In this document: in pieces, positions 49,213 through 55,803 of the stretch
Numbering within the stretch: the first letter of the stretch is position 1
Layout: each line of letters opens with the position of its first letter
NCBI GenBank assembly: GCA_963842945.1
Contig: CAWJIM010000021.1
Coordinates: forward strand, 160,001 to 224,000
Direction: 5' to 3'
Source of the DNA: an uncultured Gemmatimonadales bacterium
GTDB lineage: Bacteria > Gemmatimonadota > Gemmatimonadetes > Gemmatimonadales > GWC2-71-9
DNA length: 64,000 nucleotides
Program-made: the position numbers and the translations under genes
Notes under the pieces: model-generated
Database searches by the model: none
Told to the model about the DNA's origin: nothing
The model's input: the letters and a program-made list of their open reading frames with translations, nothing else

Positions 49213-49294
49213 GCGAACGTGGCGGAATCGGCAGACGCGCAGGACTTAGGATCCTGTCCCGAAAGGGGTGCGGGTTCAACTCCCGCCGTTCGCA
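49213..49294 (+). tRNA. tRNA-Leu, anticodon TAG (CCA not encoded)
   Basis: Acceptor stem GCGAACG/CGTTCGC; anticodon arm CAGGA-CTTAGGA-TCCTG; long variable arm; GGTTCAAC T-loop. Confidence 0.96.
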
Positions 49295-50178: not shown

Positions 50179-51828
50179 CTAGGCCTTTCCCTTCGACTTG
50201 GCCGGCTTCGTGCCGGCCCGCACCACCCGGTTCCGCCCGGCGCGCTTGGCGGTATAGAGAGCCTCGTCCGCATTCGCAATCACTTCCTCCGCCGTCTCCC
50301 CATCGTTCGGGAACTCGGCTATTCCGATGCTCAGGGTGATCTTGCGCCCGGCAAACTGGTGGGACTCGACCCGGGCTCTGATCCGCTCCGCCACTTCATT
50401 TGCCACCTCCCCGCTGGTGCCGGTTAGCAGCACCGCGAACTCTTCCCCGCCGTATCGGGCCGTGCAATCCTCGTCCCGGGTGGAGTTCAGCAGAATGGTC
50501 GCCACCTTCTTGAGGACCTCGTCTCCGGCCGGGTGACCGAACGCATCGTTGTACTTCTTGAACTCGTCGACATCCGCCATGAGGACGCTGAACGCCCCCT
50601 TATGGCGATAGGACCGGAGCAACTCCTGGGAGAGGCGCTGGGTGAGATAACGGCGATTGTACAGGCCGGTGAGCGAATCCGAGGTTGAGAGCCGTTCCAG
50701 ATCCTCGTTCTGCTTGCGCAGCCGATCGTTCATCGCGTCCAGCTCCTGGCGACCCTGCCGGAGCCGGGCGACCATGTGGTTGAACACATCGGTCAACTCC
50801 CCGACTTCGCCGGTGGCGGCAGGCAGGTCCACCGCCAAGTCGCCCTCGGCCACCTCGACCGCGCCCTGAATCAGCCGCTCGAGCGGCCGCACGATCCGGA
50901 TTCCGAGGCGGTATGCTGTGAAGCCGACGGTGAGCAGCAGTCCGCATACCATGAGCAGGGTCCCATTGCGGAATCGCCGGATCTGCTGAAAGGCGGCCTC
51001 GGCTGGAATCTCGGAGACGACGGCCCACTTGGCCCTCGGAATTCGCTTGAGGCTTCCCACCACTTCCGCGCCCGACAGGCCCTCGTAGCCGATCACCAGT
51101 CCCTCGCGCGACTTGAGCCGGTCAAGCGTGCGCGGCTTGAGACGTGACTTCATGAATTCGGCGGAGCTCTCGGCGGTCCCCACCAGCATGTCGCCGGCGA
51201 TGGTGATCAGGAAGGCCTGGCCCCCGCGCGGGGCAAAGACCCGCAATCCTTTTTGCGCCCCGCGGAGGCTGAGCCGCGCCGCGAGCGCCCCGAGCATATG
51301 GCCCTCTCCACGCTTGACCGGCACCGCCACCACCAGCACCCCCCTGGTCAGCGACGCGTCCCAGCTCGCCTGGCCCACTAGCGCGTCATTGGTACTCAGC
51401 TCCTTGGCCCAGTCGGGCGGAAGGGCGATCGCCTTGCCCTGGGGACCGGTAGCGGCAACCGGCCGACCCTGGGGATCGAACACCACGAGATCTTCGTACT
51501 CGTTGAATCGGTCACGTACCGAGGTGAGATAGTCGTTGAGGCGTTCCTGCGAGTTTCCTGGCCGCTGCCGGGACAGCTTTTCCGACACCTCGTAGGAGCT
51601 GGCGAACACCCGGAGGTCGTACAGGCGCTCCTTCAGCCATACATCCATCTCGCGGGCTGCCTGGCCGCTGGAGCTGAGCAGCTCCTGTTTGATCTTTGCT
51701 TCCAGGGCGCGGCTGTTCTGACTATAGGAAATCCATGCGGTGAGCCCGGACGGCAGCAGGGCAACGATCAGCGCAAACACCAGAATCTTGCTTCGGACCG
51801 TGTCCAGTTTCAGCCGCAGCTTAGGCAA
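50179..51828 (-). CDS. Diguanylate cyclase (TM, Cache-like, HAMP and GGDEF domains)
   Basis: DSLTGLYNRR, DVDEFKKYND and RYGGEEF motifs; TTG start with GAGGAG RBS. Confidence 0.92.
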   Translation of the reverse strand: MPKLRLKLDTVRSKILVFALIVALLPSGLTAWISYSQNSRALEAKIKQELLSSSGQAAREMDVWLKERLYDLRVFASSYEVSEKLSRQRPGNSQERLNDYLTSVRDRFNEYEDLVVFDPQGRPVAATGPQGKAIALPPDWAKELSTNDALVGQASWDASLTRGVLVVAVPVKRGEGHMLGALAARLSLRGAQKGLRVFAPRGGQAFLITIAGDMLVGTAESSAEFMKSRLKPRTLDRLKSREGLVIGYEGLSGAEVVGSLKRIPRAKWAVVSEIPAEAAFQQIRRFRNGTLLMVCGLLLTVGFTAYRLGIRIVRPLERLIQGAVEVAEGDLAVDLPAATGEVGELTDVFNHMVARLRQGRQELDAMNDRLRKQNEDLERLSTSDSLTGLYNRRYLTQRLSQELLRSYRHKGAFSVLMADVDEFKKYNDAFGHPAGDEVLKKVATILLNSTRDEDCTARYGGEEFAVLLTGTSGEVANEVAERIRARVESHQFAGRKITLSIGIAEFPNDGETAEEVIANADEALYTAKRAGRNRVVRAGTKPAKSKGKA

Positions 51829-52073: not shown

Positions 52074-52103
52074 TTGACACTCAGCCGCGGGCGGTCTTAG
52101 CTT
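52074..52103 (+). promoter_or_regulatory. Sigma70-type promoter
   Basis: TTGACA-18 nt-TAGCTT. Confidence 0.65.
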
Positions 52104-52133
52104 GCCAGCGAACGATCATCAGCCGGAGCAACA

Positions 52134-52226
52134 ATGTATCACGGTCTGCGGCACCTCCTCGAGCTCAATCCCCGGCGGCACAACCGCTGGCTTCGCTGCG
52201 CACCGCGCAGAGACCAGGGAGCGTAG
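52134..52226 (+). CDS. Putative leader peptide (30 aa)
   Basis: GGAG RBS; MYHGLRHLLELNPRRHNRWLRCAPRRDQGA*; lies between the promoter and the terminator. Confidence 0.6.
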   Translation: MYHGLRHLLELNPRRHNRWLRCAPRRDQGA

Positions 52227-52266
52227 GCCTTAGCTAGAAGCTCGGACAGTACGTCCTGCACCCAGG

Positions 52267-52291
52267 CCCGCTCAAGATGAGCGGGTTTTTT
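52267..52291 (+). terminator. Intrinsic terminator in the 5' leader (attenuator)
   Basis: CCCGCTCA-AGA-TGAGCGGG-TTTTTT, ending 23 nt before the activator ATG. Confidence 0.85.
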
Positions 52292-52314
52292 GTTGAGCTT
52301 TTACTGGAGTCGCA

Positions 52315-53922
52315 ATGACCAACCCGGCTACCGGGGATGTCCCGCGGATCGTGGTTCATCCCCCCGCCTTGCTGCCGTCCGAAACGAAGCCCCGCCCCAG
52401 CGAGGCTGAGACGGACCCAGCTCCGCTGCTCCGGACTGAGACCGGTGAGGCCAGGAAGCTGGGGACTCTGGTCGACGTCAGCCAGACCCTTGCCGGACAT
52501 CTGAGTCTCCCGGCGGGGCTTTCAGGCGTCCTCCTGATTCTGGTCCGCCGCTGTTCGGTGCTTCGTGGAGCCGTGGCTCTCTTGAGCGAGCAAACCGGGG
52601 TCTTGGAGATCAGGGCCCAGGTAGGGCTGCACCACGATCGGGAAGGCGGTCACTACGGTGCCGCCCAGGGAATCCTCGCGGAGGCAGCCACCACGGGTGA
52701 GACTATCGTCATCGCCCGCCAGGTCGATGGAAACAGCGAACACACCGCGCTGGCAGTTCCAATTGTCTTGCACCGGCGCTGCATCGGCTCGTTGATGGTC
52801 GAAGTGCGATTTCGTCCCGAACGCGACGTGGATCGGCTGCTGAAATTTCTGCGGGTGGTGGCCTCCATGATTTCGCAGGCGGTCCGGATTCACCGGCTGC
52901 TCGAGGTGGAGCGGCAAAAGCTGGTCGCCGAGAACGCTCAGCTGCGCCAGGAGCTGCAGCAACGGAATCCCCTTTTCAATCTCGTGGGGGCGAGCGGCCC
53001 GATGCGTGAGCTCTACGAATCGGTGGCCAGGGTCGCCGGAAGTAACACCACGGTGTTGATCCGGGGCGAATCGGGTACGGGCAAGGAGCTGGTCGCTCAA
53101 GCCATCCACTTGCACTCGCCCCGAGCCAAGAAACCCTTCATCAAGGTGAACTGCGCGGCGTTGCCGGAGACTCTGGTCGAATCCGAGCTGTTCGGCTACG
53201 AACGAGGGGCGTTTACCGGAGCGCTGCAGCGGAAGAAGGGGCGCTTCGAGCTGGCCGACGGCGGAACGTTGTTCCTGGATGAGATCGGCGAGCTGAGTCC
53301 GGCCACCCAGGTAAAGCTGCTGCGGGTCCTGCAGGAGCGAGAGTTCGAGCGGGTAGGAGGAACGGAGTCGGTTCCGGTGGACGTGCGGGTGATTGCGGCC
53401 ACCAACCGGGACCTGGAGAAAGCACTGGCCGACGCCAGCTTCCGGGAAGATCTGTACTACCGGCTGAACGTCTTCCCCATCTTCATCCCGCCGCTTCGCT
53501 CCCGAAAAGCGGACGTGCTTCCCCTGGCAGATCACTTCATCGAGAAGTACGCCCGGGAGCACGGGAAGAACATCCGGCGGATCTCCACGCCGGCTATCGA
53601 CCTGCTCTCCAGCTATCACTGGCCCGGCAACGTGCGCGAGCTGGAGAACACCATCGAGCGAGCCGTCCTGCTGGCGGACGGAGAGGTCATTCATGGCTAT
53701 CACTTACCGCCGACGCTGCAGACCGCGGACGCCACCGGCACGGTAGTGAGCACTTCGCTGGATGGTGCGGTCGAGGCCTTCGAGCGCAGTCTGATCGAGG
53801 ACGCCCTCAAGACCGCCCGGGGTAATCGGTCCCGGGCCGCGAGGCTCCTGGGCACCACTCAACGGGTGATCAGCTACAAGGTCAGGAAATACGGGATAGA
53901 TCCGGCTCGACTGAAGTCGTGA
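52315..53922 (+). CDS. Sigma54-dependent activator (GAF-AAA+-Fis HTH, NifA-like architecture)
   Basis: [20 protein letters not shown] and [10 protein letters not shown] motifs; C-terminal HTH. Confidence 0.93.
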
Positions 53923-54149
53923 CCGCCCTTCGCTTCAGGAGCCGCCTCAGTGCGGGAGGAGTAGGCGGCGACCGCGGCAACGAGCAGATTGGCCACGATG
54001 ACCGGCAGCGCGTGGAGCATGATGCCGTACACCACCCAGAGGAGCGCGGCTGCGGCCTGGGTCAGGCGGAGAGCTTGCTGGGTCTTGCGGGAGTAGGAGG
54101 CCAGGAACACGGCCGTCGCGAGCCATCCCAGCGCGTCGGCGGCTCTCAT
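53874..54149 (-). CDS. Small three-TM membrane protein (YgjV/PQ-loop-like)
   Basis: [13 protein letters not shown]...LWVVYG...PVIVAN; ATGA overlap with the upstream HAD gene. Confidence 0.7.
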
Positions 54150-54956
54150 GCGACCGCCGGGTGCTTATCGGGATGGGCTCCCCGGATGATCAGGGAGTCA
54201 GTCCGCGCCTTGTCCCACTCCTGCAGCACAAAGCCGTGGGAGCCAAAGAAGGCGCGGATGGCGCCGGCGTCGAGTTTGACGATCTCTTCCAGCACCGGCA
54301 CCATCACGCTGAGCACGTCGTCGCTGAGCACGGTTCTCCGGGCGATCGGGGTAAGGAACTTGTTCTCGGACACCGCGACCGTCAGTCCGTCCATCCGGTT
54401 CACGTGCAGCATGACATGCACGTCCGACCCGCCGTCTCCAACGTAGACGATGCGATCGCCGCTCAGTCCCAGCTCGGCCCGAAGCTGGTCCAGCACGGCC
54501 ACCTTCCCGTACCCGGCCGGTGCCCTGATGATGGACTGGATCTCGCCCGTTTCCGGGATCGTAGCGGAAACGGGTGCCGTGGATCCGCTCGGGCGGAACC
54601 ATTCCGGCCAGCGCAGCACGGATCACTTCCTCCGGCGCGGCCGAGATGACGCAGAAGGTGAAGCGGAACCCCTGCAGTGAGTCCAGCACCCGGCCGAGCA
54701 CCGCGATATGCTGCTTCAGGCGGATGCGACGGCCCACCTCTTCCAGGTCCTCCTTTCGAACCCGCCGGTATTCCGGATCGTGGAGCAAAAGATAGGAGAG
54801 CTCGGCGCCCTGATTCACCAGATGCATGGACGAGAGCCCCGAGCACTTTTCCTCGAACCCGCCGATGCCGAGCATCTCGCTCAGGAGGAAGCCGGAATCG
54901 TTGAAGCTGAGCGTCTGATCGAAGTCACTGGCCAGCAGATAGTGCTTTGGGTTCAT
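54146..54956 (-). CDS. HAD-IB family phosphatase (frameshift near 54550)
   Basis: [17 protein letters not shown] and YVGDGGSD motifs. Confidence 0.85.
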
Positions 54957-55288
54957 GGGCGCTTGACCACCGTCTGTGACCGGGCGGCGACCTCCCGCCG
55001 CACGATGGCGGCGTCGAGAAACGCCTGCTCCAGCGGAGCCAGGCGCGGACGTCCAGCCTCGGCCGCCGCGCCGGGACGCTCGGTCAGCGGCGCCGGGGCG
55101 CAATGAATGACCGGCGCCGCCTGATTCCATTCCTTGGCGCGCTCTCTGGAGCGGGCTGCGAGCCTCGCACCGGTGTCGTTGGCCGATCCGAATGCCTGGC
55201 TCTGGGCCTGCAGCGCGCCAGCGCGACTCATTCCCAGCACCAGCATCATAGGCGCCATCATCGAGATTGTTGGATATCTCATCCGCAT
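54953..55288 (-). CDS. Small secreted hypothetical protein
   Basis: GAGGAG RBS; signal-peptide-like N-terminus (…ALQA-Q); ATGA overlap with the HAD gene. Confidence 0.6.
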
Positions 55289-55398: not shown

Positions 55399-55521
55399 GC
55401 AACCCGCATGCCACGCATGAGGCACACGAATCACCCTCGCAGAGGAGGGCTGCGCGAGATCGGACCTGAAGCAACCCGACCAGATTGTCGGAAGCCTTCG
55501 GTCCAATCGACAAAATTGTTA
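55399..55521 (-). promoter_or_regulatory. Sigma54 promoter with two palindromic upstream sites
   Basis: Minus strand TGGCATGCGGGTTGC (55413-55399); CGACCAGATTGTCG at 55477 and CGACAAAATTGTTA at 55508. Confidence 0.75.
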
Positions 55522-55803
55522 GATCGGATGGGTGACGCTATCTGGAGAATCGCCGGTCCTGCAGCAGTTCACGGCAGGTCGATTGCGCGGAGCAAGACCA
55601 GTCGAGGCACCGAGGATTCTGGTGGGCCCACAGGATTGAGTCGCCCAGGGGGCCGGAGTGTCCCGGCCGAGCGGCCGAGTGCTGGCTGGGGTCGGCCTGG
55701 GGTGCCATGGGCGGCGGCTGGTCCGATGACCGCCCAGTGCAACGATTGGCGCGGCGCTGTCCAAATTGACCCTGAGGTCAGCGTCAGGGTAGATTCCCGC
55801 ACA

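Follow-up and report, generated by a model that had tools for sequence, protein, structure and literature searches.

An apparent leader attenuator with asparagine and cysteine codons precedes a NifA-like sigma54 activator gene in Gemmatimonadales

In the attenuators represented by trpL, hisL, thrL and ilvL, the position of the ribosome selects either an antiterminator or an intrinsic terminator, and the sensing of two amino acids by a single leader has its precedent in thrL and ilvL. In mycobacteria the whiB7/wblC leader contains a uORF of variable length and sequence which is enriched in one amino acid and gates a transcription factor gene (PMC10274678). The leaderless polycysteine sORFs of mycobacteria attenuate translation via sequestration of the RBS, several operons being tied to one ribosome-read signal, a 'ribulon' (10.1101/834739). 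The target RNA of ANTAR antitermination consists of two hairpins with 6-nt loops carrying A1 and G4, the second of them overlapping the terminator (PMC3369931). Within the open-access literature we found neither an Asn-codon attenuator nor a leader-peptide attenuator that controls a sigma54 activator, and none in Gemmatimonadota.

The locus described here lies in a window of 64,000 nucleotides from an uncultured Gemmatimonadales bacterium. Like whiB7/wblC it places a uORF and a terminator/antiterminator before a transcription factor gene, and the uORF is variable in sequence and enriched in certain amino acids; unlike that leader, it favours Asn and Cys rather than Ala, precedes a sigma54 GAF-AAA+ activator rather than WhiB7, is tied to a nitrogen regulon and belongs to another phylum. 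With the trpL type it shares a 5' leader in which a short ORF, provided with a start signal, precedes an intrinsic terminator, but its control codons are scattered, a 1:2 protector hairpin is not evident in the window, and a regulator gene is controlled rather than biosynthetic enzymes. The activator leader falls outside both classes since there is no WhiB7, no tandem codon run and no biosynthetic gene. A further feature of the trpL type, an antiterminator that cannot coexist with the terminator and would be masked by a ribosome at the stop codon, was indicated by conservation and modelling, covariation not being significant. As in the mycobacterial polycysteine sORFs, Cys codons act as the proposed sensor, many of the uORFs are leaderless and the ribosome-read signal is common to several operons; here, however, an intrinsic terminator is used and one to four scattered Cys codons are mixed with Asn.

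The features are collected in Table 1. An earlier note on this DNA had described a promoter, a GGAG, a 30-codon uORF, a U-tract terminator and an activator gene in that order, and all these parts are present where it had placed them, giving a leader element of 240 nt before the activator ATG at 52315. The complementarity that it had noticed between the strand around the uORF stop and the 5' arm of the terminator is real in sequence and geometry, 52219-52223 facing 52269-52273 and 52226-52230 facing 52264-52268. Statistics from the window alone are modest: the promoter is missed by a simple sigma70 consensus scan (0 matches), the fold of the whole leader has a z of -1.4, and the antiterminator duplex (-17.0 kcal/mol) has a p of 0.15 against shuffles. 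It is conservation among relatives that makes the leader more than a chance arrangement. Rfam covariance models, riboswitch and T-box included, gave nothing relevant in the window or at 10 loci. A scan of the 4183 called genes of the genome returned five promoter-plus-terminator leaders, and only those of the activator and of glnA have a clear uORF. A frameshift of the uORF by assembly error was rejected, the same frame being kept in five close relatives. One contig from a public RNA run, of 151 nt, spans 52155-52305 with one mismatch and ends 14 nt beyond the T tract; low-depth contigs of this sort show neither ends nor strand, so that it counts neither way. A divergent dCache-HAMP-GGDEF diguanylate cyclase gene (50179-51828) adjoins the activator promoter, and a tRNA gene lies at 49213-49294.

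Table 1. Positions, within the window, of the leader, the activator gene and its likely target operon
Feature	Position	Strand	Remarks
sigma70-type promoter	52074..52103	+	-35 TTGACA 52074-52079, -10 TAGCTT 52098-52103, spacer 18 nt
GGAG, Shine-Dalgarno-like	52125..52128	+	5 nt ahead of uORF start
30-codon leader uORF	52134..52226	+	TAG stop 52224-52226; presumably translated
Candidate control codons in uORF	Asn12 52167-52169, Asn17 52182-52184, Cys22 52197-52199	+	
Predicted antiterminator 5' strand	52219..52230	+	overlaps uORF stop codon, pairs with 52264-52273
Intrinsic terminator	52264..52291	+	hairpin 52264-52288; core 52267-52273 with 52279-52285; six T 52286-52291
535-aa GAF + sigma54 AAA+ + Fis-type HTH activator	52315..53922	+	NifA-like, below NifA cut-off
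Small membrane protein, YgjV / SemiSWEET-like	53874..54149	-	last gene of likely target operon
HAD-IB (MtnX-like) phosphatase	54146..54956	-	likely target; two reading frames in assembly, single in close relatives
Small ORF, ~100 aa, no Pfam/NCBIfam family	54953..55249	-	first gene of likely target operon
sigma54 (-24/-12) promoter of convergent operon	55399..55413	-	
Two ACA-N4-TGT-type inverted repeats	55477-55491, 55508-55522		likely enhancer sites of activator; putative binding

A search for orthologues of the activator identified 33 genomes out of 401 in the family and 57 out of 103 in the genus (the genus tallies count one unpublished genome, G443, whose loci support no claim), and 63 activator loci, one per genome and up to 30 from each search, were examined. 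The terminator is found at 36 of them, always together with promoter and uORF (36/36); the comparison of orthologous leaders that the earlier note had called for thus recovers the same layout at 36 of the 63. Among the 27 loci without the terminator there are two where the activator lies within an operon, and in the one with sufficient DNA the same leader precedes an upstream porin-like gene which heads the operon containing the activator. The leader is likewise present at all five metagenome loci containing the activator. A quick tree built from 76 proteins places it in two separate clades (4 changes, vs 25 with shuffled labels) which have the terminator core in common. When 33 leaders were aligned, no variation was seen in TTGAC, in the first T of the -10 element or in the terminator core (33/33). 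In many relatives the uORF starts 5-7 nt past the -10 element, i.e. it is leaderless. Against the main reading, several terminators of g23 have weak U tracts. Outside Gemmatimonadota the leader was absent from the best 80 loci across prokaryotes, taken from at least 600 candidates. One activator that branches below the g23/g26/g36 clade is preceded by a longer leader of 200 nt (L044:1095-1374), whose terminator is a variant and in which a clear uORF is missing.

The content of the uORFs was analysed in the 36 activator leaders, each uORF being chosen by a position rule blind to content. Asn makes up 8.6% of the in-frame codons, compared with 0.9% in each of the other frames and 2.7% in dinucleotide shuffles, and occurs in 35 of the 36; Cys makes up 7.0%, compared with 2.1 and 1.0% in the other frames and 3.1% in shuffles, and occurs in 34. 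Reduced to one leader per lineage (16), there are 34 Asn codons against 11.0 +/- 2.9 in shuffles and 31 Cys codons against 13.0 +/- 3.1, counts which none of 2000 shuffles reached (p about 0.0005), although the lineages still share ancestry; no other residue, Arg, His and Trp included, falls below p 0.02 in these 16 representatives. The rarer Asn codon is favoured, AAT:AAC being 51:24 in the uORFs vs 3338:7708 in the long ORFs of the genome. The uORF of the window alone gives p 0.03 for Asn and p 0.5 for Cys. The earlier note had seen no codon run in it and had listed seven Arg, three His, one Trp and one Cys, all scattered; a tandem run is indeed absent from the window uORF and occurs only in some relatives, but that listing had overlooked the two Asn codons, which with the single Cys are the scattered candidates for control. 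Against the main reading, one close relative lacks an Asn codon while keeping Cys, and two leaders lack Cys. The peptide itself drifts: in three close pairs of relatives there are 19 non-synonymous vs 5 synonymous codon changes, the length ranges from 17 to 45 codons, a 1-nt indel alters the C-terminus, and no residue pattern is common to the uORFs of all lineages in the 36 leaders. The conserved signal is thus the Asn/Cys codon content, which points to the sensing of charged tRNA.

In order to model the switch, transcripts cut just 5' of the 3' arm of the terminator were folded with the ribosome footprint kept single-stranded; four leaders in which the position rule had chosen another frame are omitted from the ribosome model and kept in the codon counts. 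As a mean of 35 leaders, about 0.9 of the terminator 5' arm is predicted to be sequestered when the A site is at least 7 codons before the stop and 0.41 when the ribosome is at the stop, in line with the expectation of the earlier note that a ribosome at the stop codon would favour termination and one stalled upstream would allow read-through. In the activator leaders the modelled switch point falls just downstream of the Asn/Cys codons. In the window, sequestration drops after codon 26, and read-through is therefore predicted whether the ribosome stalls at Asn12, at Asn17 or at Cys22. As to a 1:2 protector hairpin, which would give termination when the uORF is not translated, sequestration with no ribosome on the RNA is 0.94 in the window and 0.17-1.0 across leaders. 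Antiterminator pairing in the 33-leader alignment amounts to 82%, vs 30-54% when the strand is slid; against the main reading, its duplex beats shuffles (p<=0.05) in only 17 of 35 activator leaders and 12 of 26 glnA leaders. The covariation proposed earlier as a check did not materialise, neither the antiterminator (178/500 shuffles) nor the terminator exceeding shuffled alignments; a terminator core without variation would fit a strand required to pair in two ways, which is not proof. We consider that the leader is very probably a functioning ribosome-dependent attenuator.

The same genome has another attenuator of this family before glnA-amtB-glnK (G000:C24:218122-218404, L110), with a promoter box, a uORF containing Arg(CGA)-Asn, an antiterminator and a terminator. 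Among relatives a uORF leader occurs at 34 of 55 glnA loci, and the Arg(CGA)-Asn codon pair is present in every one of the 34. In the 29 glnA uORFs picked by the rule, Asn is 2.2-fold over shuffles and Cys is depleted (0.2-fold), and the modelled switch lies 2-3 codons past Asn. In 25/29 glnA promoters, in 6/36 activator promoters and at 1/134 promoter-like sites of the genome, the one being glnA, the -35 element is preceded at a distance of 8 nt by a TGCA-N5-TGCA box; the activator promoter of the window does not have it. The exact pattern has 74 matches (including G000:C24:218122-218147) in 56 of the 103 genomes, vs 6 in the reversed control. The 46 box loci inspected are mostly glnA. At the others the box stands alone before amt genes, is joined by an Arg-Asn uORF before a nitrate reductase-like gene, a porin-like gene and an antiporter, or falls inside coding sequence, where several matches are probably due to chance. 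The genome contains GatB and a frameshifted AsnRS, while GlnRS and gltB were not found above cut-off in this 87% complete genome; given GatB, the frameshifted AsnRS and the lack of a GlnRS above cut-off, Asn-tRNA would track the pool of free Asn.

A conserved 11-nt element occurs in short transcripts which are driven by the box and diverge from leaderless activators (L009, L011, L014, L038, L078, L303, L306, L308-L311) and in the glnA leaders L128 and L134-L136, and the same letters are found inside amt coding sequence (L007, L008, L125, L126); the element may be an amtB remnant retained as a regulatory RNA. A second amt/glnA set is located on G000:C18 together with an ANTAR protein; many genes of this contig are broken, and it may be a contaminant (contamination of the bin is 6%). 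Frameshifts in the assembly split the HAD gene, asnS (G000:C2) and a second glnA (G000:C19); a 92% relative has the HAD gene intact, and the splits are probably indel errors of the assembly.

In the earlier note the gene behind the switch was taken for a GAF-AAA+ sigma54 activator, and the GAF, sigma54 AAA+ and Fis HTH domains were confirmed. The best NCBIfam match is NifA (TIGR01817), at 484 bits vs an equivalog cut-off of 528.85. The protein thus has the GAF-AAA+-HTH architecture of NifA and Aquifex Nlh1 (PDB 8jrc, 9qq6, 4g3k), and TGT/ACA half-sites near a sigma54 promoter, but differs from NifA in that score below the cut-off and in its likely target, a phosphatase-transporter operon. The named records among its close homologues are Gemmatimonadales. 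Binding of the activator at 55477-55522 is suggested by linkage. The half-sites there presumably stand in inverted order relative to the NifA site. A single copy of the enhancer-plus-sigma54 pattern was found in each of 20 genomes out of 103, and the reversed control gave none. In 17 of 19 cases examined it is followed by the HAD gene, the remaining two being short loci at contig ends, and similar inverted-repeat sites precede two myxobacterial homologues of the activator.

The best PDB match of the HAD protein is MtnX at E 0.37 and the Atlas names given to it are automatic, neither fixing the substrate. The likely target operon has no clear nitrogen or sulfur link, which speaks against the main reading: no nitrogen or sulfur gene recurs near it in 80 metagenome neighbourhoods (clusters judged from sequences), and the annotated neighbours include no nif, cysteine-pathway or resistance gene. 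On a plasmid of Gemmatirosa kalamazoonensis (L266:5391-9073) the HAD and small transporter genes are divergent from putative ergothioneine-synthesis genes, which we take to resemble egtB and egtD. Elsewhere in the genome a sulfate-uptake operon (G000:C23:190099-195997) begins with a porin-like gene and is preceded by a sigma54-like promoter and an Rrf2-like regulator; it is a possible sulfur target of the activator, and no clear enhancer site was found there.

Layout, conservation, mutually exclusive pairings and the enrichment in Asn and Cys are read from the sequences directly, and from them we infer the following mechanism. We propose, as the probable reading, that the attenuator reads through when Asn-tRNA or Cys-tRNA runs short and in this manner gates the activator. 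The uORF would be translated behind the RNA polymerase; a ribosome reaching the last codons would cover 52219-52230 and allow the terminator to form, and one that pauses at Asn12, Asn17 or Cys22 would leave 52219-52230 free to pair with the 5' arm of the terminator, so that transcription continues. Low Asn-tRNA would signal nitrogen shortage, as it may in the leaders which these bacteria have before glnA, nitrate reductase and porin genes, and the Cys codons would add a second input, for sulfur, giving an OR gate. The activator would then drive the adjoining sigma54 operon of small ORF, HAD phosphatase and small transporter, probably with a scavenging function.

Other readings of the same leader have to be weighed. 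It could be a general sensor of translation stress in the style of whiB7/wblC, in which read-through follows from any stall, such as one caused by ribosome-targeting antibiotics, and the enrichment is secondary. The modelled stall at nearly any codon at least 7 before the stop does free the antiterminator, Arg-x-Arg patterns are present, and any amino acid in the whiB7 uORF can act as a trigger (PMC10274678); such a sensor nevertheless seems unlikely, as the strong enrichment is confined to Asn and Cys, parallel Asn leaders stand before glnA and other nitrogen genes, and no resistance gene is annotated nearby. That cysteine alone is sensed, the Asn codons being relics of a nitrogen-regulon ancestor or the result of RNA-level constraints, is decidedly unlikely in our view: Asn is the more enriched residue, is encoded by both of its codons and is found in 35/36 leaders, two leaders have no Cys, and the annotated neighbours lack a cysteine-pathway gene. 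Such a sensor would nonetheless suit the position of Cys as the codon nearest the switch in the clade of the window, the close relative which has lost both Asn and kept Cys, the lineages with 3-4 Cys, the missing glnA box of the window promoter and the Cys attenuators already known (10.1101/834739).

The earlier note had thought of a ligand- or stress-responsive arrest peptide, and a nascent peptide of the TnaC, ErmCL or CruR type, stalling the ribosome on a small ligand or metal, would account for the Asn-Arg neighbours that recur in the clade of the window, in the g23 clade and in glnA leaders, as well as for Cys-x-Cys or Cys-Cys in several lineages. The excess of non-synonymous changes, the variable length and C-terminus and the want of a residue pattern across all lineages, with Asn/Cys content retained, tell against the suggestion and make it very unlikely. 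The invariant terminator core could also be explained by an RNA-binding protein or a metabolite (an ANTAR target, a riboswitch or a T-box) throwing the switch, with the ORF incidental. Hairpins of ANTAR type do appear at the acidobacterial homologues of the activator: in six of six (L214, L222, L234, L236, L237, L238) a different terminator follows an A1/G4 hexaloop hairpin ~115-140 nt before the GAF match, L222 and L234 have further such hairpins upstream, and these homologues are likely, from their sequences, to be under ANTAR control. The Gemmatimonadales leaders resemble ANTAR systems in placing nitrogen-linked genes behind an intrinsic terminator, but differ by having no dual hexaloop: a pair of 6-nt-loop hairpins with A1 and G4, of which the second overlaps the terminator, occurs in 0/36 activator leaders (a single one in 2/36) and in 0/29 glnA leaders. 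As there is also no Rfam match in the window and 10 loci, and the codon bias is confined to one frame, a switch of this kind is most improbable.

Sensing of charged Asn- and Cys-tRNA, the reading that we prefer, leads to a wider and more tentative proposal, to which we would give not quite even confidence. Gemmatimonadales would run a nitrogen regulon through the ribosome, with Asn-codon attenuators before glnA, nitrate reductase, a porin and the NifA-like activator; Cys gained in the activator leader would make it a nitrogen/sulfur OR gate on top of a sigma54 cascade, and Acidobacteriota would use ANTAR antitermination on the same gene. If the preferred reading is right, Asn would be a new sensed amino acid for attenuation, nitrogen status would be read at the ribosome and not only through PII/NtrBC, and the leader would be a first point from which nutrient regulation could be tested in the Gemmatimonadales, an abundant and barely cultured group of soil bacteria.
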